A DNA stretch of 58,859 bases, taken from Marinifilum sp. Lineage in GTDB: Bacteria > Bacteroidota > Bacteroidia > Bacteroidales > CG2-30-32-10. The notes beneath the pieces are model-generated. The model was not told the DNA's origin and made no database searches. It saw only the letters and a program-made list of their open reading frames with translations. The stretch's first letter is position 1. Each line of letters opens with the position of its first letter. Positions 8,609-33,928 of the stretch are shown here, piece after piece. A program made the translations under genes and the position numbers. Location: positions 1 to 58,859 of the forward strand of contig DYDE01000008.1 in NCBI GenBank assembly GCA_020718065.1, read 5' to 3'.

Positions 8609-10372
8609 ATGCAAAAAAAAACAAATAAAAACACCAATCCTATCAAAGGCAAAAGCTCAAAAACAAAAATTAAACAAGTTGAAAAGCCTGTTGCAAATTG
8701 GATTTATTTTTTATTAATAAGTGTTGCCTTAATTATCACATACATTGCATTTGCACCCTCTTTAAAAAATGGATTTGTTAGCTGGGATGATGAAGGTTAC
8801 CTTTTTGAAAATAGCTATATAATTAATTATGGATGGAAATCTACCAAAGCCATATTCAGTAATATAATTATGGCAAATTATCACCCTTTAACTATTTACG
8901 TGTATGCTACATTACACCATTTATACAAATTCATTCCCTATCCCTATCATTTGTTTAATGTTTTGTTTCATTTATTCAATGTATTATTGGTTTTTATTTT
9001 CATTAATAAAATAAGCAATAAGAACATTACAATATCTTTTGTTACCGCCCTGTTTTTCGGGTTACATCCTTTGCATGTTGAGTCTGTCACCTGGGTCTCA
9101 GAAACAAAAGACGTACTTTATACATTTTTCTTCTTAATTGGGTTGCTTTGGTATATTAAATACACTATTGCCAAACATAATAAAATATTAATATATTCAC
9201 TATCGCTTTTATTCTTTATTTTATCCTGTCTATCAAAGGGAATGGCTGTTGTATTTCCTCTGATACTTGTTATTATTGATTATATTAACGGTAAGAAAAT
9301 AAATATTAAAACACTTCTTAATAAAATTCCTTTTTTTATTGTTGCCCTTATATTTGGGATTATTGCAATTAAAGCACAGGCTACTGACAAAGGTATTTTT
9401 GACACATCTTCATTTTCATTTTTTGATAAAATCCTTTTGCCTATTTATGGCCTTTTATTTTACCTTGTTAAAATGATTTATCCGATAAATCTAAGTATTA
9501 TTTATCCTTATCCTGTTAAAACGTCATCAATACTTCCAATAGAATATTTTATTTCGCCAGTAATACTGATTATATTAATTGGTTTAATTATTTATTCATT
9601 AAAATATAGCAGAAAAATTGCATTCGGGAGTTTATTCTTCTTCTTTTGCATATTACCAGTACTTCAGATCATTCCTGTTGGTATTTCTATTGCGTCAGAC
9701 AGGTATTTTTATCTTTCATCCATTGGTTTGTTCTTTTTAATTGGTATAGGTCTTAACTATTTAATTGAAAATAAAGGAAAAGAGCAACCTATTCTCAAAT
9801 ATTTATCCTTTATTTTCTTGGTTTTTTCAACTATAGTATTCATTAATCTCACAAGACAAAGAACTATGGTATGGAAAAACACACTTACTCTTTGGCAGGA
9901 TGTAATCCGTTTTGATCCGAAAATTGACAAACCATATTTTAATATTGGATTACAACTCGACAGAAATGGAAACATTGATAGTGCAATTGTTTATTATAAA
10001 AAAGCAATTATTTGCAATCCTAAAAATGTAAAAGCATTAAATAATTTAGGCAATCGTATGTATGATAAAAGGCTTTATGATTCTGCTTTTTTTTATTATA
10101 ATAATTTAGTAAAAGTAGATTCTTTATATTATCCTGTTTATCATAATCTAGGAAACATTTATAGTCTTAGGGGCAATATTGACAAAGCAATTGAGTATTA
10201 CAACAAAGCATTAACTTTAAAAAACGACTTTGCTCTTTCCTATTTTACTCTTGGAACTTGTTGGAATAGAAAGGGAGATTCTGTTAAATCAAATGAAAAT
10301 TTAATTAAAGCTGCTCAATTAGGAAATAATGATGCTCAAAGCGTTTTAAAATCAAAGAATATCAAATGGTAA
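8609..10372 (+). CDS. polytopic membrane protein with C-terminal TPR repeats (GT-C/PMT-like glycosyltransferase candidate)
   Basis: About 11 TM helices are followed by TPR motifs (AIVYYKKAIICNPKNVKALNNLG; AIEYYNKALTLKNDFALSYFTLG). The ORF-track start 8585 is a TTG, so I use ATG at 8609. Confidence 0.55.
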   Translation: MQKKTNKNTNPIKGKSSKTKIKQVEKPVANWIYFLLISVALIITYIAFAPSLKNGFVSWDDEGYLFENSYIINYGWKSTKAIFSNIIMANYHPLTIYVYATLHHLYKFIPYPYHLFNVLFHLFNVLLVFIFINKISNKNITISFVTALFFGLHPLHVESVTWVSETKDVLYTFFFLIGLLWYIKYTIAKHNKILIYSLSLLFFILSCLSKGMAVVFPLILVIIDYINGKKINIKTLLNKIPFFIVALIFGIIAIKAQATDKGIFDTSSFSFFDKILLPIYGLLFYLVKMIYPINLSIIYPYPVKTSSILPIEYFISPVILIILIGLIIYSLKYSRKIAFGSLFFFFCILPVLQIIPVGISIASDRYFYLSSIGLFFLIGIGLNYLIENKGKEQPILKYLSFIFLVFSTIVFINLTRQRTMVWKNTLTLWQDVIRFDPKIDKPYFNIGLQLDRNGNIDSAIVYYKKAIICNPKNVKALNNLGNRMYDKRLYDSAFFYYNNLVKVDSLYYPVYHNLGNIYSLRGNIDKAIEYYNKALTLKNDFALSYFTLGTCWNRKGDSVKSNENLIKAAQLGNNDAQSVLKSKNIKW

Positions 10373-11726: not shown

Positions 11727-11745
11727 ATTGTGGAGAATAACGGAA
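11727..11745. repeat. attL core (displaced partial copy of the tRNA-Ala 3' end)
   Basis: Identical to 40380..40398. The flanking bases differ on both sides (11746 a versus 40399 t). Confidence 0.9.
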
Positions 11746-12064: not shown

Positions 12065-12466
12065 TTATTTGTTTGCGTGCATTTTTATAATTATATCCTG
12101 AAGCTCTATTATTTTCTTTCTCGCTTCATCTAATTCCTTATGACATTTTACTTCATTCACACTTTGATTTATATTATTGCCATTCGCAATTATACTATGA
12201 TCTACCCTATTATTATCATTCTTATTTATATTACCATAAATAGCTTGCTGTTCGTTCACATGACTATTGGTTTCTTCAAACCAATATAACATAGAAACTT
12301 CTAAAACAGTGCTTATTTTTTCCAAATTTTTAATTTTTATTTCAGTTTTTCCTGACAAAAAATCATAACAAGATTGTTTTGCCAGTCCAATTTTTTCTGC
12401 CAGCTCTGGAATTGCCATTTTTTTCTTATCTAATAATTGTTTGATTTTTAATATTATAGCTTCCAT
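12065..12466 (-). CDS. XRE/cI-like HTH transcriptional repressor
   Basis: N-terminal HTH (MAIPELAEKIGLAKQSCYDFLSGKTEIKIKNLEKISTVLEV). It is divergent from a second HTH gene, which is the classic lysogeny-switch layout. Confidence 0.7.
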   Translation of the reverse strand: MEAIILKIKQLLDKKKMAIPELAEKIGLAKQSCYDFLSGKTEIKIKNLEKISTVLEVSMLYWFEETNSHVNEQQAIYGNINKNDNNRVDHSIIANGNNINQSVNEVKCHKELDEARKKIIELQDIIIKMHANK

Positions 12467-15296: not shown

Positions 15297-15551
15297 ATGG
15301 AAATCAACTATTAATTACAAAATCCTGAAGTTGTTTTTACCACCTTCAACAAAGCAATAACAATCAGTTATTACGATGCGCTTAAATTTTCGGTTGAAGA
15401 ATTGCGAATAATTCAGGATAATATAAACAGAACTATTATGCCAAAAGATAACAAGATTACATATTTTTTTAATTCTGAAATTAAATACAACATCGTTTCA
15501 GAACTGTTTACTAAACTAAAAATTGAACAATCAATTTTAACCATCGAATAA
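15297..15551 (+). pseudogene. 84-codon reading frame interrupted by a single in-frame TAA at codon 6
   Basis: ATG GAA ATC AAC TAT TAA (15312..15314) is followed by 78 open codons in the same frame. These end in a TAATG overlap with the next gene. The only downstream in-frame ATG is at 15438. Confidence 0.3.
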
Positions 15552-15832
15552 TGCAGGAAAAATATTATCTAAAAGTTAAGGATCTTCTTTTAAAAGTATT
15601 CAGAGTAAGAAAATATCTTATTCGTTGCAATACCGATAAAAAAGCCGTCACACTTACAGAAATTGAAATTCTTGAACAAGAATTATTATTGATCAATTCG
15701 CCAGCTCCTGCAGCAAAGTTTATTTTAAAACACTTTGACAAGTTGCTTTATTACATTCAACCCAATCAGAAAATATTTATCGAAACGCTTAACAAGCTTG
15801 CAATGGAAGCAAAAGAAATACTAAAAGAATGA
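15551..15832 (+). CDS. hypothetical early protein
   Basis: A 93-aa ORF with no recognisable motif. Confidence 0.45.
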   Translation: MQEKYYLKVKDLLLKVFRVRKYLIRCNTDKKAVTLTEIEILEQELLLINSPAPAAKFILKHFDKLLYYIQPNQKIFIETLNKLAMEAKEILKE

Positions 15833-15845
15833 ACAAAAAAAAAGC

Positions 15846-15880
15846 CCTGGTTTGCAGCCCAGGACTTTTATATATTTTTT
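15846..15880 (+). terminator. weak terminator-like hairpin
   Basis: A 5-bp CCTGG...CCAGG GC stem followed by a T-rich tract. Confidence 0.4.
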
Positions 15881-15929
15881 CTTAACCTTCACAAAATTAG
15901 TAATTTATTTTTAATAAACAAAATATTTT

Positions 15930-16163
15930 ATGGAGGGATATACAAAATATAACAAAAAAACATTAGCTGCAAAATTAGGTATATCTGTTTATATCCTTAA
16001 AAAAGAACTGCAATATATGTTTGAGGATGAAGAGATAAAAAAAGAATTTGGAAAATACAGAAACAGATACTTTAAACCTTTCCAGATAGAGATTATAAAA
16101 AGAGAAACAAAACTATTCCCACTAAAATATGATTCCGAAAGAAACGATAGATCAGATAATTGA
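15930..16163 (+). CDS. small HTH protein upstream of the primase
   Basis: KKTLAAKLGISVYILKKELQYM looks like an HTH. The ORF overlaps the primase start. Confidence 0.45.
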   Translation: MEGYTKYNKKTLAAKLGISVYILKKELQYMFEDEEIKKEFGKYRNRYFKPFQIEIIKRETKLFPLKYDSERNDRSDN

Positions 16164-19161
16164 AAACTCCAAAATCTTAGACATTGCTCAGGATTTTATA
16201 AATGACTTAAAAAAATCAGGCACCAGCTTCAAAGGTACCTGCCCGATGTGTGGGGAGAAAAAACTAAATATTACTCCCACAAAAAAAATATTTAAATGCT
16301 TCCACAATTGCGGTTTCAAAGGTAATAATGCTGTTACCTTTCTTATGGAATCGCAAAAAATGGATTACCCAACAGCATTAAAATATTGCGCTGATAAGTA
16401 TAATATCCCAATTGAAGAAGTTAAACAAAAAAAAGGACCTCAAAAAAAAGGAGGCGAAAAACAACTGTCCTTCAGAGATGTTCAGTTACAACTTTCAGGG
16501 CTTACAAACGCTGATCAGAAAGCAACTGTTAAAATAGATGAAAACACCCGCAAAGTAGTTGATGTTTTTGAATCCGGTACACTTGATCAATTTGGTCGAA
16601 TTGTCCCCGGTGATGATATGATCATCTGGTATTTTGACTTGGATGGTAATCCGGTTTTATACCAAAAACAAAAATCAAATAAATTAGAACCCTTATTTCG
16701 GGTTCGCTGGCAAAATCCCGAACTACATCCGGACAAACAAGGTAAACCAGTAAAATATAAATCTCCTTTTGGTTCAGGTTCTCATATTTACATTCCTGAA
16801 GTTGTTCGCAAAGCATATAAAGAAGCCAGGGTTATAAAAAGGCTTTATATTCAGGAAGGTGAAAAGAAAGCAGAAAAAGCGTGCAAACATGGCATTTTTT
16901 CTGTAGGTGTTATGGGTATTCATTCTATTGCTTACAATGGAGTGTTACCAATGGAATTTCAACAATTGATAAAAACCTGTAGGATAGAAGAAATAGTTTT
17001 TGTTTTAGATGCTGATTACGATCAGATAAGAGAAAATGCAGGAATAAAAGAAAGGATAGAACAACGCCCCTATTCTTTTTTTAAAGCAGTTATTAATTAC
17101 AGAGATTATTTCAAAAAGTTTTCAAACATCAGCATTTATCTCGAATTGTTTTTTGCAAACATTCTTACGAATGAAAAACATGATAAGGGTATTGATGATT
17201 TGCTTACCAATACATTGCCCACCCGTGAAAATGAACTTTATCAGGATTTTGAAACCGCCATCAATGATAAAGAAAACAATCACAAAGGAAATTTTGTTCA
17301 ACTCTACAAAATAACAACCGCCCCCGAAAACAAAATTCAGGAATACTTTTGTATTGATAGTATCGAAAATTTTTGCAAAAAACATTTAGAAACCCTCAAA
17401 CTATTACCCGAATTCTATTTTGGTAAACACAAATGGAGAATAGTTGAAGATATTCCCGAATTAGCTCAACCGCTAATGGACAATGAAATTTACTGGGAGC
17501 TAAACACCTGGACAGATGGAAAAGGAAAAGAACATAAAGACTATAGATTTGATTATGAAAATGCTTATAACTTCCTTAAAAACCGTGGTTTTGGTCGTAT
17601 TCGTATGATCGATAACAAATTTATTTTTGTTCATATTATCAATAACATTATAAACGTAGTAGATAGCTTATATATGCGCGACTACGTGATGCAAATAACA
17701 AAAGAAATTGCACCCAAAGAAATCCGCAATATGCTTTACCGGGGTGGCAAAATGTATTTGGGTCCCGATTCACTTTCTAATATTGATTATGTTTTTCCAC
17801 AATTTATACAATCAGAAAAAACAGCGCAGCATATTTTTTTTAATGAAGTGTATTGGAAGATCACAGCTAACAAAATTGAAGAGCAATCTATAAACAACCT
17901 TCAAAATAATGTTTGGAGCGATAAGGTAAAAAATGTAAAAGTTTCACTTATAAGTGAAACTCTTATTAAAATAACTCCGATCGATGCAGATTTTATAAAT
18001 GAGTTGCCTGCAGACAAAAAACAAGAGTTTGCTGATAAAATTGGTCAGTATGGTATCGATCTTTCTGATAATGCCAAAAATTGTCATTTTATTAAATTCC
18101 TGATCAATACCAGCGATTTTTACTGGCAAATGCATTTAAAAAATAACAAAGAACCATTAGATAAGGATTATAGAACTTTAACAGAAATTTTAGAAACAAA
18201 CCTTCATTTTGTTTCCAAAATTACAGCCATAGGTTATTTGCTACACAAACACCGCGACCGTTCATGTGAAAAGGCTGTTATAGGGATGGATGGAAAAAAT
18301 TCTGAAATTGGTGAAAGCAACGGAAGATCCGGAAAAAGTTTATTGGGTTATGCCATTGGTAATATGATACCTCAGGTATATATCCCCGGTAAAGAAAAAA
18401 ATTTAACAGAAGACCGATTTCTGTTTGAACAGGTAAACGAAAAAACAGATAATATCTTTATAGATGATACCCGCCCAAACTTTGACTTTGAATTTCTTTT
18501 CCCGGTGATCACGGGTATAATGCTTGTTAATGCCAAAGGTGATAAAAAATTTAGTTTACCCTCTCACTTAGTGCCAAAAATTTATTTAACAACCAATCAT
18601 GCAATAAATGGCAATTCAGGATCATTCAGAGACAGACAGGCATATATTTGTTTTTCTGATTATTACAACGAAAACTATAAACCAATTCACGATTTTGGCC
18701 TTAACTTTTTTGATGAATGGGAAGCTGATCAGTGGAATTTGTTTTACAATTTTATGGCTTTTTGCCTGCAAACCTATTTCAAATTAGGCTTGGTTTCTCC
18801 ACCTATGGAAATTGTGGAAAAAAGAAGATTAAGACAATATATAGGTGATGAATTTATCACCTGGTGCAATGAGTTTTATGGCACTACCGATGATGATGAT
18901 CCGCAAACTACTTTTGGAGTCAACATAAACATACCCATACCCAGAACTGAAATATTCAGTAATTTCCAAAGCAAATGCCCAGCTTTAACTAAATGGGTGA
19001 AAGCAAAGAATTTTAAAGATAAATTAAAAGCCTGGTGCAAATATCGGGACCTGATTTTTAACCCCCACGGCGAAAAAGAAAAGGTAGGTAAGGACAATAA
19101 AAGCGGTGGGGTGGAATATATGATAGTTGGTAATAACAAATTTAATTCTAATGTATTATGA
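16129..19161 (+). CDS. bifunctional DNA primase / SF3 helicase (CHC2 zinc finger + Toprim + D5/P4-alpha-like NTPase)
   Basis: Zinc finger CPMCGEKK...FKCFHNCGFKGN. Toprim acidic motifs YIQEGEKKAEK and FVLDADYD. Walker A GESNGRSGKS, Walker B NIFIDD and motif C LTTNH. Confidence 0.85.
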   Translation: MIPKETIDQIIENSKILDIAQDFINDLKKSGTSFKGTCPMCGEKKLNITPTKKIFKCFHNCGFKGNNAVTFLMESQKMDYPTALKYCADKYNIPIEEVKQKKGPQKKGGEKQLSFRDVQLQLSGLTNADQKATVKIDENTRKVVDVFESGTLDQFGRIVPGDDMIIWYFDLDGNPVLYQKQKSNKLEPLFRVRWQNPELHPDKQGKPVKYKSPFGSGSHIYIPEVVRKAYKEARVIKRLYIQEGEKKAEKACKHGIFSVGVMGIHSIAYNGVLPMEFQQLIKTCRIEEIVFVLDADYDQIRENAGIKERIEQRPYSFFKAVINYRDYFKKFSNISIYLELFFANILTNEKHDKGIDDLLTNTLPTRENELYQDFETAINDKENNHKGNFVQLYKITTAPENKIQEYFCIDSIENFCKKHLETLKLLPEFYFGKHKWRIVEDIPELAQPLMDNEIYWELNTWTDGKGKEHKDYRFDYENAYNFLKNRGFGRIRMIDNKFIFVHIINNIINVVDSLYMRDYVMQITKEIAPKEIRNMLYRGGKMYLGPDSLSNIDYVFPQFIQSEKTAQHIFFNEVYWKITANKIEEQSINNLQNNVWSDKVKNVKVSLISETLIKITPIDADFINELPADKKQEFADKIGQYGIDLSDNAKNCHFIKFLINTSDFYWQMHLKNNKEPLDKDYRTLTEILETNLHFVSKITAIGYLLHKHRDRSCEKAVIGMDGKNSEIGESNGRSGKSLLGYAIGNMIPQVYIPGKEKNLTEDRFLFEQVNEKTDNIFIDDTRPNFDFEFLFPVITGIMLVNAKGDKKFSLPSHLVPKIYLTTNHAINGNSGSFRDRQAYICFSDYYNENYKPIHDFGLNFFDEWEADQWNLFYNFMAFCLQTYFKLGLVSPPMEIVEKRRLRQYIGDEFITWCNEFYGTTDDDDPQTTFGVNINIPIPRTEIFSNFQSKCPALTKWVKAKNFKDKLKAWCKYRDLIFNPHGEKEKVGKDNKSGGVEYMIVGNNKFNSNVL

Positions 19162-19487: not shown

Positions 19488-19985
19488 ATGAAACAAGGAA
19501 TGGGTTCACACCAATCAACAAAAATGCTAAATGATGAATGGATTACACCGAAACATATTTTTAACGGATTGGGGCATTTTGATTTAGATCCCTGCGCTCC
19601 TCTAAATCCTCCTTATAAAATCGCAGATGTGCATTATAGCAAAGAAGAAAATGGATTAATAAAAAATTGGTTTGGTAGAGTTTGGCTTAATCCTCCATAT
19701 GGAAATGAAACTGCTAAATGGCTGAATAAATTAAGTGTTCATCAAAATGGCATTGCTTTAATATTTGCTCGTACAGAAACAAAAATGTTTTTTGAACATG
19801 TATGGAATAAGGCTAAAGCAATTAAATTTATTGAAGGAAGATTATTTTTTCATTATGTTGATGGAACAAAAGCAAAATCTAATTCTGGAGCTCCTTCAGT
19901 TTTAATTGCATATGATTATTATAATGCAGGAATTCTAATAGATTCTGAAATACCTGGTAAACTTATATTTTTAAATAATAAATAA
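19488..19985 (+). CDS. phage-type DNA N6-adenine methyltransferase (Dam, PF05869-like)
   Basis: [10 protein letters not shown]...FDLDPCAP...WLNPPYG...ARTETKMF...APSVLIAY matches the phage Dam family pattern, including NPPY. Confidence 0.8.
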
Positions 19986-20002
19986 TTAAAATCAAAAACC
20001 CT

Positions 20003-20137
20003 ATGAAAGCAGTCAATTATAAATTTAAAAAAAATTCGGATACAGTAGTTAAAGTCCGCAAAACCAAAAGAAACGAACCCTGCCCCTGTGGATCAGGAAA
20101 AAAATTTAAACATTGTTGTTTAGATATGAAATATTAA
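20003..20137 (+). CDS. 44-aa SEC-C metal-binding motif peptide (below the ORF-track cutoff)
   Basis: [44 protein letters not shown]. The motif [16 protein letters not shown] is the canonical [12 protein letters not shown]-x-K-x-CC signature. Confidence 0.6.
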
Positions 20138-20155
20138 TTATTAAACCCCGATCGT

Positions 20156-20431
20156 ATGAACAAAAAAGTTATTTCTGAATTGAAACTCTTATTATTTCCA
20201 CTATTATTTCAGTTATTCTTATTTTATATATATAGTATTATTCCATCGTGGTGTTTTATTCCATGGCTTGTAGCCTTGCAAATTTCAATAATCTGTTGGT
20301 TAATACACTTCTTATATAATAAAATATATTCTTTTAAATTAACTATTGTTTTTGCTTATATCATATTAATTACTTACATAATTGATGTAATCATAGAAAT
20401 AATTAAAATTATTAATAATATTCATTTATAA
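20156..20431 (+). CDS. small polytopic membrane protein
   Basis: 91 aa, almost entirely hydrophobic, with about 3 TM helices. Confidence 0.5.
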   Translation: MNKKVISELKLLLFPLLFQLFLFYIYSIIPSWCFIPWLVALQISIICWLIHFLYNKIYSFKLTIVFAYIILITYIIDVIIEIIKIINNIHL

Positions 20432-20443
20432 AACCCCGATCGT

Positions 20444-21106
20444 ATGAACAAAACAAATATAGAATGGTGCGATTACACCTGGAACCCTATAGTAGGGTGT
20501 AAAAATGATTGTTACTATTGTTATGCTAAAGAACTCCATAATATGAGACATTTAGCATATTGGGATGGTAAAAAATTACCCGAACAATATAAAAAACTAT
20601 TTAGCGAAATACAATTCTTCCCGGAGCGTCTCAAAAAACCTGCAACGCTAAAAACCCCTTCAAAAATATTTGTAGGATCTATGGCTGGTATTTTCGAACA
20701 TTCAACTTTGTTTGAAGGAAAAGTTCAAGGTATGATCAATGAAGTTTTAAATACCATCAAACTTAATCCCCAACATACTTTTATGTTTTTGACAAAAAAC
20801 CCCTGGGGTTATGAAAATTATGAATTTCCTGAAAACTGTATGCTAGGACTTACGATGACCAACGGATACTATGAAGGGAAACTTATTTTTTTCGCTAATA
20901 ATATAAAAGGTAAAAAATTTTTAAGCCTGGAGCCTATAACAGAAACTTTTGAAAATATTGATTTTATGCAGTATTGCGACTCCATAGAACAAATAATAAT
21001 AGGAGCTATGAGTGGCAAAGATAAAATTATACCTCAAAAACATTGGTTTGATTGCATAAAACATCCTAATATTTTATACAAGAATAACATTAAAAAATAT
21101 TTATAA
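20444..21106 (+). CDS. DUF5131 / phage Gp37-Gp68 family protein (three-Cys motif)
   Basis: The N-terminus TNIEWCDYTWNPIVGCKNDCYYCYA matches the family signature (IEW..tWNp..GC...C..CYA). Confidence 0.75.
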   Translation: MNKTNIEWCDYTWNPIVGCKNDCYYCYAKELHNMRHLAYWDGKKLPEQYKKLFSEIQFFPERLKKPATLKTPSKIFVGSMAGIFEHSTLFEGKVQGMINEVLNTIKLNPQHTFMFLTKNPWGYENYEFPENCMLGLTMTNGYYEGKLIFFANNIKGKKFLSLEPITETFENIDFMQYCDSIEQIIIGAMSGKDKIIPQKHWFDCIKHPNILYKNNIKKYL

Positions 21107-21125
21107 TTATTAAACTCCTAATTAT

Positions 21126-21713
21126 ATGAGTAAAATTGGTCAAGATTTATATTTAAAATTTGGTGAAGCTTCTTTATTCGTAGAAGAAAATCCTATTGAT
21201 TCTGCTGTTTTTAATCTTAATAAAACGTATCGTTATTGTCTTATAAGGACATGGGATAAAAGCAAACCTTTTGTTATGTTCATAGGTTTAAATCCATCAA
21301 CTGCTGATGGAATCAATAACGATGCAACAATAAGACGTTGTAAAACTTTAGCTTTCAATCTTGGTTATGGTGGTTTGTATATGCTCAACTGCTTTGCATT
21401 TATTTCTACTGATCCCAAAAAACTTGTTTACGATCCTGAATTGATTGAAAGAAATAACGACTGGTTAGAAACAATCTCAAAAAAATGCGCTGATGTTGTT
21501 TTCTGCTGGGGCAATTTCAAGATTGTAAAAGAAACCAAAAGAGACCAGGAAATAATTAAAATGTTTCCTGATGCTAAAGTATTAGGGCTTAACAAAAATG
21601 GAAGCCCAAAACATCCGCTTTATATGCCTTCCGATACCAAGCTTATAAGTTATAGTGATGCAATAGAATTACAAATGCAGTACTATAAGATTATTAAATT
21701 ACAAAATAAATAA
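21126..21713 (+). CDS. DUF1643-family protein
   Basis: VMFIGLNPSTADGINNDATIRRCKTLAFNLGYGGLYMLNCFA matches the DUF1643 core (NPStAd...D.T.rrc...gyGg..v.Nlfa). Confidence 0.7.
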   Translation: MSKIGQDLYLKFGEASLFVEENPIDSAVFNLNKTYRYCLIRTWDKSKPFVMFIGLNPSTADGINNDATIRRCKTLAFNLGYGGLYMLNCFAFISTDPKKLVYDPELIERNNDWLETISKKCADVVFCWGNFKIVKETKRDQEIIKMFPDAKVLGLNKNGSPKHPLYMPSDTKLISYSDAIELQMQYYKIIKLQNK

Positions 21714-22403
21714 ATGAAATATCCCGGACAAAAAAACATACCTGGACTGATCCAAAAGATAGTTAATGAAATTCCTTATTGTTCAGAATTTTATGAATTA
21801 TTTGCCGGCTCAGCTGCAGTAAGTCGTTTTTTATCTGTACTCCCTGGCGTAAAAGTTAAATTTTACTTAAATGATATTTCACCGGTGGTTACAGAAAAAA
21901 ATAGCTGTACGGTACCTAAAGATAAATTTATCTGTACCAGCTGTGATTATTTTGAGTTTTTTCAAAAATATCTGTACGCTCCGGATCCTACAGACAAATT
22001 TATTTTTTTAGATCCTCCTTATTTGCATTCAACCCGGCCTGATAATACTGCTATTTACGATTTTGAAATGACAGAAAATGATCATATACAGTTATTAAAA
22101 TCTGTACAAGATCTAAAAATAAATACAATGATCATTCACCCGGTTTGCGAATTGTATGAAACTTATCTGAAGGACTGGCGATATCATACAGTCAAAATAA
22201 GATACCATCAAAAACTTAGTATCGAAAAATTATATATGAATTATGAAAAACCTTCTAAGCTACTTACCACATCTTATTTAGGTATAGATTGCTGGGACAG
22301 ACAAAGAATTAAACGCAAAGGAGAAAGAATTATAAACAAAATTAATAATCTCCCACCCCACGAAAAACAATATATCCTTGAACGAATTAAAGAAATTAAA
22401 TAA
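21714..22403 (+). CDS. D12-class (Dam-like) DNA N6-adenine methyltransferase
   Basis: YPGQKN...ELFAGSAAV (SAM-binding motif FxGxG-like) together with FLDPPYLHS (catalytic DPPY). Confidence 0.75.
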   Translation: MKYPGQKNIPGLIQKIVNEIPYCSEFYELFAGSAAVSRFLSVLPGVKVKFYLNDISPVVTEKNSCTVPKDKFICTSCDYFEFFQKYLYAPDPTDKFIFLDPPYLHSTRPDNTAIYDFEMTENDHIQLLKSVQDLKINTMIIHPVCELYETYLKDWRYHTVKIRYHQKLSIEKLYMNYEKPSKLLTTSYLGIDCWDRQRIKRKGERIINKINNLPPHEKQYILERIKEIK

Positions 22404-29062: not shown

Positions 29063-30874
29063 ATGAACAATTTAGGAGCTACCGAAGTACTTGCAATATC
29101 CGCTGAAAAAACAGACGGGTACAATGCCAGTTTCGAGGCAATCAACTTTAATGGTTTCACTCCTAAATATAAAATACTTAACAACTATTCTCACCTGATT
29201 GAACCCGGCGATTTTTCAAAAAAATTCAACGGAAAAGGTTTGGAAGTAACTTTCAAAACCATTCCTGCTGATATTTTAAAATACAATTACCAGGTTAAGA
29301 AATTAGCAAACCATCTTAAAACAGGTAACTACAGACAAGATGGTTTTAATGTATGGCATTGGCTAACAACCAATATCAAATTTAAAAATGATGCTGATGG
29401 CATAGAAGAATTGCGCACGCCTGCAGGTAGCTGGCGCGATCGTTTTTCTGGGATTGACTGCGATTGCTATACGATTTTCGCCTCTTGTTTATTAGTACAA
29501 ATGGGTCATTATCCCATTTGCAAAGTTGTTGCTTTTCCTAGCAACGATCCATTAAAAGCCCCTTCATTTTCACACATTTATGTTTTATTAAATGAAATAA
29601 TTCTGGATCCGGTAATGAAAACTTTTAACCTGGAACCACCAAACATTGTTAAAAATCATAAAATCATGATAGCAAATTATACCCTTAACGGGCTCAACAA
29701 TATTAATGGAGATACAAATTACCAAGCATCTCCATTCGAAACCGAAGTAGCTTCAAATTTAATGAGCTATATCAACGGGCAAACTAATAAAATTGCCAGT
29801 GGAAAATTCAATGCTATGGATTTTTCGAACCTCAAAAAGGCTCAATATTTATTATTCATTAATCCATTGCCTGAACGTGAATTGATTGCTGAACTTTTAG
29901 CAACCCACGTGAAAGATTTTCACAAAAATGGATCTATGCAATTTTACAATCCAGAAATAAACGGATTGTTATACGGAAATCCATTAGGAGCTTTAAATGG
30001 AACTGCTGAAGTAAGTGAAGAAACCAACGAAGAAATTGAACGCATTGGTCAGATATTCGATATTATTGATGATGCTTATGAAAGCAATGATCTTGGTAAA
30101 CTTAAAAATTTTTTAAAGAAAATTGCTCCTAAAAATGTTATCAAAAAAGTAAAAGAAGTAAATAAAAAAATTGTTACCAAAGTTAAAGCCGTAACCAAAA
30201 AAGTTACAGCCACTATTAAAAAGGTAGCAAAAAAGGTTTTGGTTACTTACAATCCTGCATTCGCAATTCCACGGGCAGCTTTTTTGGTTTTAGTAAATCT
30301 CAATGTTTTTAATCTTGGTTTCAAACTTAGCTTAGGTTATTTAACCTTAGAACAGTTTGTAGCTGATGGCGGTGATGCAAGTGAATATCAAAAATGTGTT
30401 GACTCAAAAAATAAAGCTGAAAAACTTTTTGAATTAGTTGGTGGTAGCTTATCTAAGCTTAGACAAGCCGTAGAAAAAGGAAAAGCAAGAAAGGCCAAAA
30501 GAATTGCAAAAAAGACTGTTCGCAAAGCAAGAAAAGGTGGCGTTAGCGGTTTGGGTTTGTATGGTCTTGGTGTTACAGGAGCTGAAGAATCAGCAGCTGC
30601 AGTCGCAGCCAGTTCAACTATTTGGGGCAAAATTCTTGGTTGGTTCAAAAACATCAACTGGAAAAAATTAGTTGGCAAACTAGGAAAAAAAGTTGCTGAA
30701 GGTCCAACCGAAGAAGAGGTTATAGATGATCAGGAATTAAACGCTGATGGAAGTGTTCCTGAAGAATTACAATCTGATTATTCTTCAGGTAGTGGTTCTG
30801 GTATGCCAATTTGGGGATGGGCTCTTATTGGTGTTGGTGTGTTGGGAGCTGGTTATTTAATGTTAAAAAAATAA
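29063..30874 (+). CDS. transglutaminase-like (Cys-His-Asp) domain protein with a Lys-rich repeat region, internal hydrophobic segments and a C-terminal membrane anchor
   Basis: GIDCDCYTIFASCLLVQMGHYP (Cys), SFSHIYVLL (His) and ILDPV (Asp). A KKVKEVNKKIVTKVKAVTKKVTATIKKVAKKV tract. C-terminal PIWGWALIGVGVLGAGYLMLKK. The ORF-track start 29036 is TTG, so I use ATG 29063. Confidence 0.5.
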   Translation: MNNLGATEVLAISAEKTDGYNASFEAINFNGFTPKYKILNNYSHLIEPGDFSKKFNGKGLEVTFKTIPADILKYNYQVKKLANHLKTGNYRQDGFNVWHWLTTNIKFKNDADGIEELRTPAGSWRDRFSGIDCDCYTIFASCLLVQMGHYPICKVVAFPSNDPLKAPSFSHIYVLLNEIILDPVMKTFNLEPPNIVKNHKIMIANYTLNGLNNINGDTNYQASPFETEVASNLMSYINGQTNKIASGKFNAMDFSNLKKAQYLLFINPLPERELIAELLATHVKDFHKNGSMQFYNPEINGLLYGNPLGALNGTAEVSEETNEEIERIGQIFDIIDDAYESNDLGKLKNFLKKIAPKNVIKKVKEVNKKIVTKVKAVTKKVTATIKKVAKKVLVTYNPAFAIPRAAFLVLVNLNVFNLGFKLSLGYLTLEQFVADGGDASEYQKCVDSKNKAEKLFELVGGSLSKLRQAVEKGKARKAKRIAKKTVRKARKGGVSGLGLYGLGVTGAEESAAAVAASSTIWGKILGWFKNINWKKLVGKLGKKVAEGPTEEEVIDDQELNADGSVPEELQSDYSSGSGSGMPIWGWALIGVGVLGAGYLMLKK

Positions 30875-30878
30875 AGTT

Positions 30879-31226
30879 ATGGTACGAGCAAATGAAGCTG
30901 TAAGAAGCAATAAAGCCATAAAGCCTAAAGTAAATATCCCTGGTTTAAAACCAAATATTTTTAAGCTTTTAGATAAATCAACTCAGAATTCGAAAATTAA
31001 TCCTGGAACAATTTTACCGGGTAAAGGTGGACCGGATCCTGATCCTAATGCAACTACTCCTGAAAATGATGTTAGTTATGATGATCCTTCTAAAACTGAA
31101 GATACTTCATTTGAGGAAGAAACCCCAACGAAAAAAACACCATGGGGTTGGATAATTGGATGCGTTGCCGTAGCTGGTGTTATTGGGGCTTTTGCTCTTA
31201 GTGGTAAGAAAAAAAGAAGAAAATAA
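30879..31226 (+). CDS. tail-anchored membrane protein with an acidic Pro/Asp-rich ectodomain
   Basis: C-terminal TPWGWIIGCVAVAGVIGAFALSGKKKRRK. Confidence 0.55.
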   Translation: MVRANEAVRSNKAIKPKVNIPGLKPNIFKLLDKSTQNSKINPGTILPGKGGPDPDPNATTPENDVSYDDPSKTEDTSFEEETPTKKTPWGWIIGCVAVAGVIGAFALSGKKKRRK

Positions 31227-31269: not shown

Positions 31270-31782
31270 ATGAAAAATAAATTTCTTAAATCCATGAAAG
31301 ATGTAAAGAAAACTGGCGTTAATAGCGTTGTAGATTCTTTAATTCGTTCGGGGGCTGCAGTTGGTACCGGTATCGGTTCAACATTGCTAGGCAATAAATT
31401 ATCAGAAAAAATTCCGATGATCGGAAAAATAAAAGGACCTGCTTTGTTTGGTCTAGGAATGCTCGGTGAAGTATTCTTAGGTAACTCAAAAATGAAAGCT
31501 GCAGCTGCAGGTATCTCTACCTGGGGTGCTATCGAAACAACTCATATGTTGTTGCCTGATGCTCAAAAAGAATTATTATCATTTGATAATGCAACTGTTA
31601 TTGCTCCTCCAACAACAACTACTAATGATGTTCCTGATAACGCAAATGGCGTTACTGGTTTTGGTAGTATAGAAGATTGGAATAATGCTTATCGTATGGC
31701 TGAAGAAGCTGCTGGGCAAAATTCTTCAGTTAATGGTACTAATGGAACTGGTGAAAATCCAGATTTATCTAAAATAGTTTAA
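31270..31782 (+). CDS. Gly/Ala-rich membrane-associated late protein
   Basis: Hydrophobic Gly-rich helices (SGAAVGTGIGSTLLG; GPALFGLGMLGEVFLG). Confidence 0.45.
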   Translation: MKNKFLKSMKDVKKTGVNSVVDSLIRSGAAVGTGIGSTLLGNKLSEKIPMIGKIKGPALFGLGMLGEVFLGNSKMKAAAAGISTWGAIETTHMLLPDAQKELLSFDNATVIAPPTTTTNDVPDNANGVTGFGSIEDWNNAYRMAEEAAGQNSSVNGTNGTGENPDLSKIV

Positions 31783-31840: not shown

Positions 31841-32614
31841 ATGGAAAAAGAAGCTTTAATAGTAGGTATTAATGGTACCGCCTTAAGTGCTGCAGTCGTA
31901 AATTCAGATATTAACGAATCTGCAAAAGATGTATTAAAACGCAATGCTACTGGTGAAGAAATGTTAATAGCAAAACGTTATGCTGCTAATGTTCAGAAAA
32001 AAACATATTCTGACAAATATCTAACCAGATCTCAACTCTTTATGGGAGTTAACCAAAATGAACTAAAAAATGAAACCCGTGAAAAATGGAACAACGGCGA
32101 AATAGTTCTTGATGATGCTTATTTTTATGTTCGTAAAGCAATCGTAGGTGGTTCTAATGTTATTAATGTTTTTACAACCTCCATGGATATGGAAGCCGGT
32201 GTTACAAACATTGACAAACAAAAACTTGAAGATTATGTAAATTTAGCTCTATCTCGTATGGAGGTTAATTACGATCAAAGCACAAGCATAACTTCAGTAA
32301 AAAAAGCTGAATTTGCTCCATTATCAGCATCTAATAAAGATACTGCTTTCTTAAACGGCGAAATCGAAGTAGTTGTTGGAACTCAAAAAATTTGTTCTAT
32401 TCCTATCATTCAATTTCAGGAAGGTATTGAAAATTTAAACTGTCCACAAAACGGAGTAAACTTCAAACAACCAAAATTGATAAAAGAAAAAGAAACCATT
32501 CAGATTAATATTGTTATCCCACAAGGAGAAACAATGGCAACCAATGAAGCTGGTACGCTTTATCATTTTGTAGAAATAGTTCTACGTGGTGCAAAAACCA
32601 AATTAAGAAACTAA
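31841..32614 (+). CDS. soluble late protein (structural; capsid-associated candidate)
   Basis: 257 aa with no TM helix. It is followed immediately by the strongest terminator in the late block. Confidence 0.35.
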   Translation: MEKEALIVGINGTALSAAVVNSDINESAKDVLKRNATGEEMLIAKRYAANVQKKTYSDKYLTRSQLFMGVNQNELKNETREKWNNGEIVLDDAYFYVRKAIVGGSNVINVFTTSMDMEAGVTNIDKQKLEDYVNLALSRMEVNYDQSTSITSVKKAEFAPLSASNKDTAFLNGEIEVVVGTQKICSIPIIQFQEGIENLNCPQNGVNFKQPKLIKEKETIQINIVIPQGETMATNEAGTLYHFVEIVLRGAKTKLRN

Positions 32615-32626
32615 TTAATTTCTTAT

Positions 32627-32668
32627 CTCACAGGCTTATTCAATAGCCTGTGAGTATTTTCAATTTTT
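32627..32668 (+). terminator. rho-independent terminator/attenuator inside the late block
   Basis: CTCACAGGCT-tattcaat-AGCCTGTGAG forms a 10-bp stem, followed by tATTTTcaaTTTTTT. Confidence 0.8.
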
Positions 32669-32688
32669 TATTCAAATCTTTTATAGTC

Positions 32689-33513
32689 ATGGAAAATAAA
32701 AACAATGCAATAAACTACATTTTTGGTAAAGCAAAAATTCAAATCCTAAAATGTACAATTCCAGGAAGCAGCCCTGCAGGAAATATTACCTTCAGATTCG
32801 ACTTAGATACTGACTATGAAAAATGTACAGGTTTTGCAATCGCTAATAAAAATACAACTTTTGTAGGTTTTAATAATGATTTATCCATTGAAAATCAAAA
32901 TGGTACTTTTTTAAATCCTACCAATTTTGATTTTTTAAACAGAACAATTTCTGGTATCAATCAGGAAGATAGATATTGGAATTGTTATATTCCTGCAAGA
33001 GGTAGAAGGGTATCAGTTCACTTAGATCATAGTGGTGTAAGCGCAGTAGATAAAGTTTTTTATATTTTATTCAGATTAGAAAATAATGTACCTGTTCCTC
33101 AATTTGAATATAACCTACAACAAAAATTATTAAACTTTACACCTACAGAGGCTCAAATGCCATATACTCAATTAGATTATATTTATTTTGACAATTCATA
33201 TAATGAATGTATAGGATTTCAAACAATTAATATTGCAGGTGATGACAGTACCGGAACATTTCTGAGAACTTCACAATATGCAACAACTTTTAATGATGGT
33301 GATAAAATCTTATTAGAAGATTGTAATAATCTATTTCCAGAAATAGATCAAACGGTATCGATCAACAAAAGTGCTTTTCCATTAAATTTTAATTCGATGA
33401 ATAAAACCATCAGAATTAAAACATATATGGAAGCATATGTTACACCTGCGCCAGCTACTTACAACTTAAATAATATAATAGTTTTTATTTTAAAGAGACC
33501 TTATAGAGCATAA
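32689..33513 (+). CDS. internally duplicated beta-rich late protein (candidate double-barrel major capsid protein)
   Basis: The two halves share FD..Y.(K/E)C.GF, (N/T)GTFL and a terminal (V/I)F.IL.R strand. The ORF-track start 32650 is a GTG inside the terminator, so I use ATG 32689. Confidence 0.35.
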   Translation: MENKNNAINYIFGKAKIQILKCTIPGSSPAGNITFRFDLDTDYEKCTGFAIANKNTTFVGFNNDLSIENQNGTFLNPTNFDFLNRTISGINQEDRYWNCYIPARGRRVSVHLDHSGVSAVDKVFYILFRLENNVPVPQFEYNLQQKLLNFTPTEAQMPYTQLDYIYFDNSYNECIGFQTINIAGDDSTGTFLRTSQYATTFNDGDKILLEDCNNLFPEIDQTVSINKSAFPLNFNSMNKTIRIKTYMEAYVTPAPATYNLNNIIVFILKRPYRA

Positions 33514-33517
33514 AAAA

Positions 33518-33928
33518 ATGGTAAAAGAATTTATAAAAAACCATATCAATCCAAATACATTTAATGATTATAAATTAAACAATGGAGTTTGGACATTGGC
33601 TGAGTGGCAAAGTAATGCGCTTGGTAATAATCCTTTTGATATAGGCGATTCTCTTTATTTCTTTTATTATTTTCAAATGATCGGTATTATTGACAATGTC
33701 AATGACCTTTCTAAAGGTATTGCTATCATAGTTAATGATAGAACAAATACCCAAAGAGTTGACTATAAAAATCGTGTTAAATATACCTCTATTGATGGGG
33801 CTTATATAGCAAGTTCTGATTTTATTTCATTACACGAAAAAAGTGTAAAAATAACAATCCCTTCAGCAAATGTGTTTTCTGAAATCATTCAGGGACATAT
33901 TGCTTATTATTCTTTAACAAAATTATAA
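33518..33928 (+). CDS. hypothetical late protein
   Basis: 136 aa with no TM helix and no motif. Confidence 0.45.
   Translation: MVKEFIKNHINPNTFNDYKLNNGVWTLAEWQSNALGNNPFDIGDSLYFFYYFQMIGIIDNVNDLSKGIAIIVNDRTNTQRVDYKNRVKYTSIDGAYIASSDFISLHEKSVKITIPSANVFSEIIQGHIAYYSLTKL

Follow-up and report, generated by a model that had tools for sequence, protein, structure and literature searches.

A putative double jelly-roll virion protein with two related barrels in a candidate tail-less prophage of a Bacteroidales bacterium

The 58,859-nucleotide contig DYDE01000008.1 of Marinifilum sp. (assembly GCA_020718065.1), analysed over its whole length and referred to here as the window, carries an inserted element that appears to be a temperate, tail-less prophage of a Bacteroidales bacterium. 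The present analysis concerns a 274-amino-acid (aa) protein, hereafter the target, encoded in the putative virion module of this element. The target is predicted to fold like the double jelly-roll (DJR) capsid proteins of viruses, and comparison with its homologues shows that it is a tandem duplication of a β-barrel of ~125 residues and that this duplication is old. We tentatively propose, with slightly less than even confidence, that the target serves as the hexon-type tile in the icosahedral shell of a phage that is temperate, tail-less and probably membrane-containing. The phage appears to belong to a so far unrecognised group that is distantly related to the Salisaeta phage SSIP-1. The target gene and its two barrels are located as follows.

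32689..33513, plus strand: target gene, 274-aa two-barrel (DJR-fold) putative virion protein (open reading frame with translation, AlphaFold2 model, Foldseek)
32728..33090, plus strand: barrel 1, residues 14–134 (domain hidden Markov model, E 5.6e-39; motifs LDxxYxxCTG, F/YxxxxIPA(R/K)G and FxxFRLE)
33106..33504, plus strand: barrel 2, residues 140–272, a diverged copy of barrel 1 (domain hidden Markov model, E 1.7e-23)

Internal duplication of the target

The open reading frame (ORF) of the target comprises 274 codons followed by a stop. The same ATG start was obtained in the gene calls from three independent assemblies of one groundwater sample, and the closest homologue shares this N-terminal start, which provides a second support for it. 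The first-pass annotation of this DNA had described a protein without a transmembrane (TM) helix and with an internal two-fold duplication; TM prediction likewise gave zero segments. The sequence motifs quoted in that annotation were all located in the target, namely FDLDTDYEKCTGF at residues 37–49, NGTFL at 71–75 and KVFYILFRLEN at 122–132 in the first half, and FDNSYNECIGF at 167–177, TGTFL at 188–192 and NIIVFILKRPY at 262–272 in the second half.

A self-alignment, which the annotation had named as a check, gave a marginal result for the target alone and a significant one at the family level. When the two halves of the target were aligned, the Smith–Waterman score was 42 against 31 ± 5–6 for shuffled sequences (z 1.6–2.1), and 17–39 of 500 shuffles equalled it. 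An exhaustive phmmer search over 1.84 billion representatives (E ≤ 1e-3) returned 18 proteins, of which 13 had two domains (233–342 aa) and five had one domain (119–137 aa). The alignment of the 13 two-domain members was cut at the domain boundary, and comparison of the N-half and C-half profiles using hhalign yielded a probability of 99.4% and an E-value of 1.9e-21 over 118 columns, which bears out the proposed duplication. In addition, a hidden Markov model (HMM) of a single domain matched the target twice, at residues 14–134 and 140–272, and the N-half of the target matched the C-half of three of the 18 representatives in the phmmer search. Self-alignment of the homologues gave z values of 41 (P0007), followed by 19, 15, 14, 11.5 and 9.5.

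Barrels 1 and 2 of the target share 11.8% identity, and the profile and MAFFT alignments showed that the same motifs were kept in both. The earlier observation of three landmarks recurring in register held for the first and the third, which are homologous (offsets 128 and 140), and not for the GTFL pair, a chance match with an offset of 117: in the same alignments NGTFLNP aligned with GDKILLED, and TGTFL fell in an insertion of the second barrel. The annotation had further regarded a duplication visible in the sequence as expected for DJR capsid proteins. The barrels of known DJR capsid proteins are alike in structure only (PMC8812541, PMC9719478), and the detectable duplication is therefore an unusual feature of the target. 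The size of ~270 aa given for the smallest known DJR major capsid protein (MCP) was also too high, as P5 of PhiCjT23 has 239 aa (PMC9719478); members of the present family reach down to 233 aa.

Predicted fold and structural matches

AlphaFold2 (AF2) prediction on the target sequence alone did not produce a usable model (predicted local distance difference test, pLDDT, 31). With the 13-sequence family alignment, the pLDDT rose to 85.4 with a predicted TM-score (pTM) of 0.84, and the structure check proposed by the annotation was answered by two eight-stranded β-sandwiches of the jelly-roll type. The strands of barrel 1 spanned residues 15–24, 31–38, 45–53, 64–69, 72–79, 97–102, 107–114 and 122–131, and those of barrel 2 spanned 139–150, 159–166, 173–183, 197–203, 206–213, 230–235, 240–247 and 260–271. 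An α-helix after strands F and F' is a feature of DJR MCPs (PMC8812541); in the model, a short helix (80–83) followed the fifth strand of barrel 1, and the corresponding strand of barrel 2 had no predicted helix behind it.

The model was searched against known structures, as the annotation had also suggested, and the best matches in the PDB by Foldseek were DJR MCPs, which included those of Singapore grouper iridovirus (SGIV), PBCV-1 (Vp54), PRD1/PR772 (P3), PM2 (P2) and vaccinia virus (D13), with E-values of 6e-8 to 6e-6 and query TM-scores (TMq) of 0.39–0.52. These stood alongside the cellular enzymes PHM and PNGase F (E 3e-7 to 4e-6; PHM TM-score 0.49). Genuine DJR MCPs likewise retrieve a mixture of MCPs and cellular DJR enzymes (PMC8812541). 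No helvetiaviral MCP was present among the top PDB matches. In BFVD, the best matches were the MCPs of ascovirus and other nucleocytoplasmic large DNA viruses and that of the tectivirus GC1, and matches of low TM-score included tail-fibre and minor tail proteins. The best whole-length BFVD match was the unnamed 256-aa entry I1ZBI0 (TM 0.61/0.64, root-mean-square deviation 5.1 Å), which we suspect to be gp47 of SSIP-1, also of 256 aa.

The target is thus predicted to fold like viral DJR capsid proteins. We infer that its two barrels stand upright and side by side because the pTM was 0.84 and the TMq values were higher than a single barrel could account for. In barrel 1, the cysteines Cys46 (32824–32826) and Cys99 (32983–32985) were invariant across the clade of the window protein (P0001–P0004) and could form a disulfide. 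Barrel 2 contains Cys174 and Cys212.

Virion module and its relatives

The genes surrounding the target are listed below; the gene directly upstream is termed up1, the one before it up2 and the one directly downstream dn1.

29063..30874, plus strand: 603-aa putative virion protein with a transglutaminase-like N-terminal domain, a Lys-rich middle and a C-terminal TM anchor (gp34 homology)
30879..31226, plus strand: 115-aa protein with a C-terminal TM segment at residues 90–108, candidate virion membrane protein (TM prediction)
31270..31782, plus strand: up2, 170-aa Gly-rich, weakly hydrophobic protein (orthologues of 153–167 aa in all loci)
31841..32614, plus strand: up1, 257-aa protein directly upstream of the target (orthologues in all loci)
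32627..32675, plus strand: intrinsic-terminator-like hairpin with a 10-bp stem, an 8-nt loop and a T-rich tail, between up1 and the target
33518..33928, plus strand: dn1, 136-aa protein encoded immediately after the target (position conserved in most loci)
35392..36378, plus strand: 328-aa protein with two TM segments (gene call, TM prediction)
36382..36936, plus strand: SLT lytic transglycosylase with an EF-hand-like C-terminus (Pfam SLT; PHROG 4928/196, E ~1e-37)

The loci of homologues were compared in six further cases: L004 (a 6.5-Mb genome), L006, L007, L011, L013 (a 21-kb contig) and L015. A common order was observed in all of them, namely the big protein, a TM protein, up1, a gap of 73–100 nt, the target and a short ORF, which in L013 is replaced by a second two-barrel gene. 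The big protein, up1 and the target were the best conserved members of the module, and the other neighbours had diverged beyond recognition. The hairpin of the gap, the module's only sizeable intergenic interval, was the best terminator-like site within 27–40.5 kb of the window. Equivalent hairpins were found in the same gap of L006 (~2125–2160), L007 (~9925–9975), L004 (~9905–9960) and SSIP-1 (L005, ~35985–36020), conserved by position and not by sequence. Counterparts of dn1 measured 105–194 aa in most loci and showed sequence similarity only with that of L006; dn1 is a possible vertex or minor capsid protein. Profile comparison detected no relation of either up1 or dn1 to the barrel family.

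The number of barrels at the position of the target varied among the loci. The one-barrel HMM matched once in L007, L009 and L015 and twice in the window, L004, L006, L008 and L011, and it identified two adjacent two-barrel genes in L013. The one-barrel orthologues (L007:9971–10408, L015:6787–7155 and L009:431–844; 122–137 aa) occupy the position of the two-barrel gene, and the up1 proteins beside them are larger (265–284 aa in L007 and L015). The two-domain members measured 233–280 aa, with the addition of one 342-aa member that has an insertion. In a domain tree, the N-barrels and the C-barrels of the window clade formed separate groups, a pattern that points to a single old duplication. The two P0007 barrels, which are 39.7% identical, paired together (bootstrap 71/100), and all barrels of the L004/L013 clade grouped together (64/100); these groupings hint at, but do not prove, either a second duplication or gene conversion. 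Barrel-to-barrel identity within one protein spanned 40% down to 12% across the family.

The adjacent paralogues L013:10001–10756 and L013:10753–11505, a pair also seen in L014, were 55% identical in their N-barrels and 57% in their C-barrels. They result from a whole-gene duplication later than the domain duplication, giving four barrels per locus. The 342-aa member, P0008, carries its insertion of ~80 residues at ~255–335, immediately ahead of the final strand of barrel 2; in larger DJR capsid proteins, loop insertions of this type build the "towers".

Word-indexed homologue searches retrieved only the query, or the query and P0007, and the domain alignment retrieved none; the exhaustive phmmer search was required to find the family. 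The target, up1, dn1 and dn2 had no Pfam, PHROG or PDB-sequence match (Pfam cut-off for the target E ≤ 0.01), tblastn of the target and up1 against 50,697 phage genomes (INPHARED) gave no match, and pattern scans of IMG/VR (three sub-alignments) and of GTDB representative genomes found no relatives.

The prophage element

The host is a member of the Bacteroidota, with a GroEL that shares 84% identity with the GroEL of a Bacteroidales MAG. The element measures 28.65 kb, is bounded by 19-bp repeats and is inserted in a tRNA-Ala gene. It also encodes an RNase H-like protein and two DNA methyltransferases. Its main features outside the virion module are the following.

11727..11745: attL, 19-bp direct repeat ATTGTGGAGAATAACGGAA (repeat search)
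12065..12466, minus strand: repressor-like HTH_3 protein at the element's left end (family search)
16129..19161, plus strand: 1010-aa primase with a CHC2 zinc finger and a C-terminal helicase-like region (SNGRSGKS motif)
39115..40272, minus strand: tyrosine integrase (Pfam Phage_integrase and SAM-like domains)
40380..40398: attR, second copy of the 19-bp repeat, which overlaps the 3' end of tRNA-Ala (repeat search)
40383..40457, minus strand: tRNA-Ala(GGC), the integration target (ARAGORN)

None of the element's ORFs matched a terminase, portal, HK97, protease or tail family in the Pfam and PHROG searches. The sole "baseplate hub" PHROG match fell on the SLT protein, in its lysozyme domain. 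We rejected an assignment to HK97-type or tailed phages, as terminase, portal, protease and tail families were absent from the whole element. Because no tail, portal or terminase family was present and TM proteins are interleaved among the genes of the virion module, the virion is probably tail-less and icosahedral with an internal membrane. Excision or circular junctions were not found in the source metagenome contigs, in which only the integrated form was seen, and the depth of the prophage in read-derived contigs (~8x) equalled that of its flanks, showing no excess.

An FtsK/HerA-type packaging ATPase, which in DJR-MCP genomes is usually encoded next to the MCP, was not found in the element, nor was a homologue of gp40 of SSIP-1. 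The only P-loop-like motif of the element is the deviant SNGRSGKS within the primase-helicase. A canonical packaging ATPase with a P-loop was likewise absent from the L013 stretch. Such an enzyme is also lacking in some known DJR-MCP viruses, namely the Odin group and FLiP (PMC5894146). In L004, a domain similar to the gp40 ATPase occurs at 15432–17636, fused to an ArdC-like/MPTase protein.

Relationship to Salisaeta phage SSIP-1

The SSIP-1 virion is tail-less and contains a membrane, and its T=49 capsid is built of upright pseudo-hexameric capsomers (PMC6356626, PMC6260650). It has been described with two MCP types, presumed to be single-barrel (PMC6356626, PMC4958249, PMC6260650), and gp40 has been predicted to be its ATPase (PMC4124505). 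Residues 69–223 of the 603-aa protein, its N-terminal domain, were homologous to the SSIP-1 structural protein gp34, with E-values of 7.5e-12 to 1e-10 in blastp and tblastn, and gp34 was its only match among the 50,697 phage records. An invariant Cys-His-Asp set (D-C, H, D) was present in this domain in all six related loci examined, and both the 603-aa protein (TM segment 583–601) and gp34 end in a C-terminal TM anchor.

A weaker similarity links up1 to gp45. The hhalign score of the up1 profile against gp45 was 25.3 over 131 columns, compared with 12.5 ± 2.1 for shuffles, none of 60 being as good (z ~6), with an HHalign probability of 6.6%. In SSIP-1 (JN880423), gp45 (34635–35267) and gp46 (35324–35959) are paralogues with 26% identity over 175 aa (E 1e-12), and they may be the two MCP types of this phage; the GenBank record labels them only as structural proteins. 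Given the resemblance to gp45/gp46 and the terminator behind it, up1 may be a major or co-major capsid protein.

The order of the genes is also mirrored. The SSIP-1 block consists of gp45/46 (210/211 aa), a hairpin, gp47 (256 aa) and gp48 (132 aa), and that of the window of up1 (257 aa), the hairpin, the target (274 aa) and dn1 (136 aa). A weak internal repeat with an offset of ~130 residues was detected in gp47 (SSIP-1 36043–36813; z 3.9, equalled by 2–5 of 1000 shuffles), which may also be a two-barrel protein. Profile comparison of the target family with gp47 gave no sequence signal (z below 0), and comparisons of the family with gp44–48 and other structural proteins, as well as of dn1 with gp48, remained at noise level. 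The hosts of the two belong to related phyla. Unlike the element, SSIP-1 is lytic-type and halophilic, has a genome of 43.8 kb, and carries two up1-like paralogues and the gp40 ATPase. Among isolated phages, SSIP-1 is the element's only relative, no other having given a sequence match to the module.

Role of the target

In the proposed hexon-type tile, which arose by tandem duplication of a single jelly-roll barrel of ~125 residues, the two barrels of the target would pack rigidly into a DJR tile standing upright on the membrane vesicle. Three copies, with six barrels, would constitute a pseudo-hexameric capsomer. The single-barrel orthologues would build the equivalent capsomer as hexamers or dimers of dimers, and up1, a gp45/gp46-like protein, may contribute to the capsomers of the target or to the layer beneath. 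As the same capsomer could be made from single barrels, duplication would be tolerated and recurrent; it would be neutral for a hexamer or dimer of dimers and disruptive for a pentamer, which would explain both the recurrent duplication and the motifs shared by the two barrels. Family searches recognised no other capsid system in the element. The DJR-type capsid candidate of the first-pass annotation is upheld as regards the fold and the setting in the virion module of a tail-less prophage, and its role as the major capsid protein, for which up1 is a serious rival, is only partly supported. We infer trimer formation, abundance in the particle and the presence of a membrane.

A number of observations weigh against the hexon-type tile. 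Pfam, PHROG, PDB and profile comparisons gave no sequence link from the target to any known capsid protein, and a Walker-A packaging ATPase was lacking, the pattern [GA]xxxxGK[ST] being absent from every ORF of 11.7–40.4 kb. The TM-scores to known DJR MCPs reached only 0.39–0.52, with root-mean-square deviations of 8–13 Å, and PHM and PNGase F were interleaved with the DJR MCPs and matched equally well. The terminator lies between up1 and the target in every locus, and also after gp46 in SSIP-1, a position that is the usual signature of the preceding gene, here up1, being the most highly expressed. Since up1 is related to gp45, gp45 and gp46 are paralogues, and SSIP-1 has two MCP types, up1 may itself be the major capsid protein. 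Furthermore, the one-barrel orthologues, at 119–137 aa, are penton-sized and unlike the known upright single-barrel MCPs.

The main alternative is a vertex or minor capsid protein (penton base or penton plus knob), with up1 as the upright single-barrel MCP, an assignment that we judge rather unlikely. The one-barrel form would then resemble P31 of PRD1 and the two-barrel form the two-domain penton A223 of STIV. P31 has 126 aa and A223 a two-domain build, and the one-barrel orthologues match the size of penton proteins. With up1 as the major protein, the target would be left with the part of a co-capsomer or vertex protein. This is in line with the terminator right behind up1 and behind gp46, the resemblance of up1 to gp45 and the lengths of gp45 and gp46, which are typical of upright single-barrel MCPs. 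SSIP-1 has moreover been counted among the two-MCP viruses (PMC6356626, PMC4958249). However, a fresh tandem duplication of a pentameric barrel would place ten barrels in five positions, yet young duplications exist (P0007), and the same motifs are kept in both barrels, as for quasi-equivalent positions. Among the top 50 PDB matches there was no penton protein and whole-length matches to DJR MCPs dominated, while the pTM of 0.84 in the model speaks for a compact two-barrel unit.

It is improbable, in our estimate, that the target is an accessory surface protein made of tandem jelly rolls resembling carbohydrate-binding modules (CBMs), serving in decoration, adhesion or receptor binding and not as a shell tile. 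CBM-like jelly rolls of ~120 aa are often tandemly duplicated, the copy number in this family varies (1, 2 and 2+2), low-TM matches to tail-fibre and minor tail proteins were obtained, and PNGase F, with its CBM-like barrels (PMC8812541), matched as well as the MCPs did. Nevertheless, the target was, together with the big protein and up1, the best conserved part of the module, whereas receptor binders are usually the most variable, and its place beside up1 is the same throughout the loci; Pfam gave no match to a CBM or lectin family, and this assignment would leave the element with at most one capsid candidate. A role outside the virion, in which the gene would be cargo coding for a DJR enzyme of cellular type (like PNGase F, PHM or DUF2961) or for some other product, seems very improbable. 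The presence of PHM and PNGase F among the best PDB matches would favour it, as would the origin of PNGase F in a member of the Bacteroidota, but there was no sequence match to the PNGase F, PHM or DUF2961 families, and motifs in both barrels together with one-barrel orthologues do not fit a single asymmetric active site. In addition, the gene is flanked by homologues of SSIP-1 virion proteins and by lysis genes, and all homologues seen in context occupy the same module.

Comparison with known double jelly-roll systems

The target resembles the minimal DJR MCPs (P2 of PM2, 269 aa, PDB 2vvf; P5 of PhiCjT23, 239 aa; P3 of PRD1) in being one chain of two eight-stranded barrels, of similar size and without tower decorations. 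Foldseek aligned it to PM2 P2 with an E-value of 5.8e-6 and to PRD1 P3 with 1.8e-6 to 9e-6, at TM-scores of 0.39–0.50, and the hosts of PhiCjT23 and FLiP are also Bacteroidota. Unlike those of the minimal MCPs, the barrels of the target are still alike in sequence and one-barrel orthologues exist; the target has no sequence similarity to these proteins, a conserved partner, up1, lies upstream, and no FtsK/HerA ATPase was found. The element is also larger, at 28.65 kb, than the prokaryotic DJR viruses, which have been described as under 20 kb (PMC8812541).

Two adjacent capsid-type genes of unequal size are likewise found in the Helvetiavirae (VP16 and VP17 of P23-77; VP7 and VP4 of SH1/HHIV-2), and the one-barrel gene with its 265–284-aa up1 in L007 and L015 resembles their pair of small and large MCPs; VP16 and VP17 of P23-77 have 173 and 291 aa. 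The small MCP of the Helvetiavirae acts as a homodimer (PMC4958249), and a covalently duplicated small MCP would therefore be functionally equivalent. In contrast to the Helvetiavirae, the larger gene comes first and there is no ATPase upstream, and none of the profiles, including those of up1 and the barrels, showed similarity to P23-77 VP16, VP17, VP11, VP15 or VP20. The cellular DJR proteins PNGase F, PHM and DUF2961 share the predicted two-barrel fold, and the target differs from them by the lack of a Pfam clan match (E ≤ 0.01), its viral context and the symmetric motifs of its barrels.

Implications for the origin of the double jelly roll

The fold itself is known and of the DJR kind; the family differs from known DJR MCPs in the sequence similarity of the barrels, the one-barrel orthologues, the 2+2 expansion, the partner gene, the missing ATPase and the larger genome. 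The origin of the DJR is debated between a fusion of two viral single-barrel capsid genes and the capture of a duplicated cellular protein (PMC8812541), a question that the known DJR MCPs cannot settle because their two barrels are no longer alike in sequence. In the present family, the one- and two-barrel forms are orthologous by position and barrel identity ranges from 40% to 12%; the transition from single to double is therefore open to direct study.

It is possible, although we hold it with some doubt, that the family records the step from single to double jelly roll in one virus lineage, through repeated duplication within viruses that was independent of the DJR MCP of Bamfordvirae, and that its carriers form a new phage group related to SSIP-1. 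If so, one-barrel genes, young and old tandem duplications, possibly several independent events, and a whole-gene duplication would be found at one position of the capsid module, and DJR tiles would arise repeatedly by duplication inside viruses. It would also add a new group of temperate, ATPase-less membrane phages of Bacteroidota, of roughly 20–44 kb, which virus catalogues have missed. SSIP-1, so far an orphan phage, gains its first relatives in the form of Bacteroidota prophages, and these point to a group of viruses that IMG/VR, INPHARED, PHROGs and Pfam do not reveal.

Additional features of the element

The Lys-rich, low-complexity stretch of the 603-aa protein reads KKIAPKNVIKKVKEVNKKIVTKVKAVTKKVTATIKKVAKK. 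In the relatives, the gp34-like domain occurs in proteins of 576–1001 aa, and in L015 it shares its protein with PBECR1 and DUF553. Another strong hairpin of terminator-like form, with a 12-bp stem, was located at 35335–35362, following an 82-aa Lys-rich ORF (35068–35316); it overlaps the long TTG-started reading of the following gene.

The early/middle cluster at 19488–22403 encodes a Dam-like methyltransferase, DUF5131, DUF1643 and a D12-class methyltransferase. Just before the integrase, at 38136–39074, lie three small ORFs (83, 99 and 135 aa) with one or two TM segments each, which may be holin genes or accessory genes of lysis. The longest of this trio (135 aa) gave a weak match to an eCIS_core/protease PHROG.

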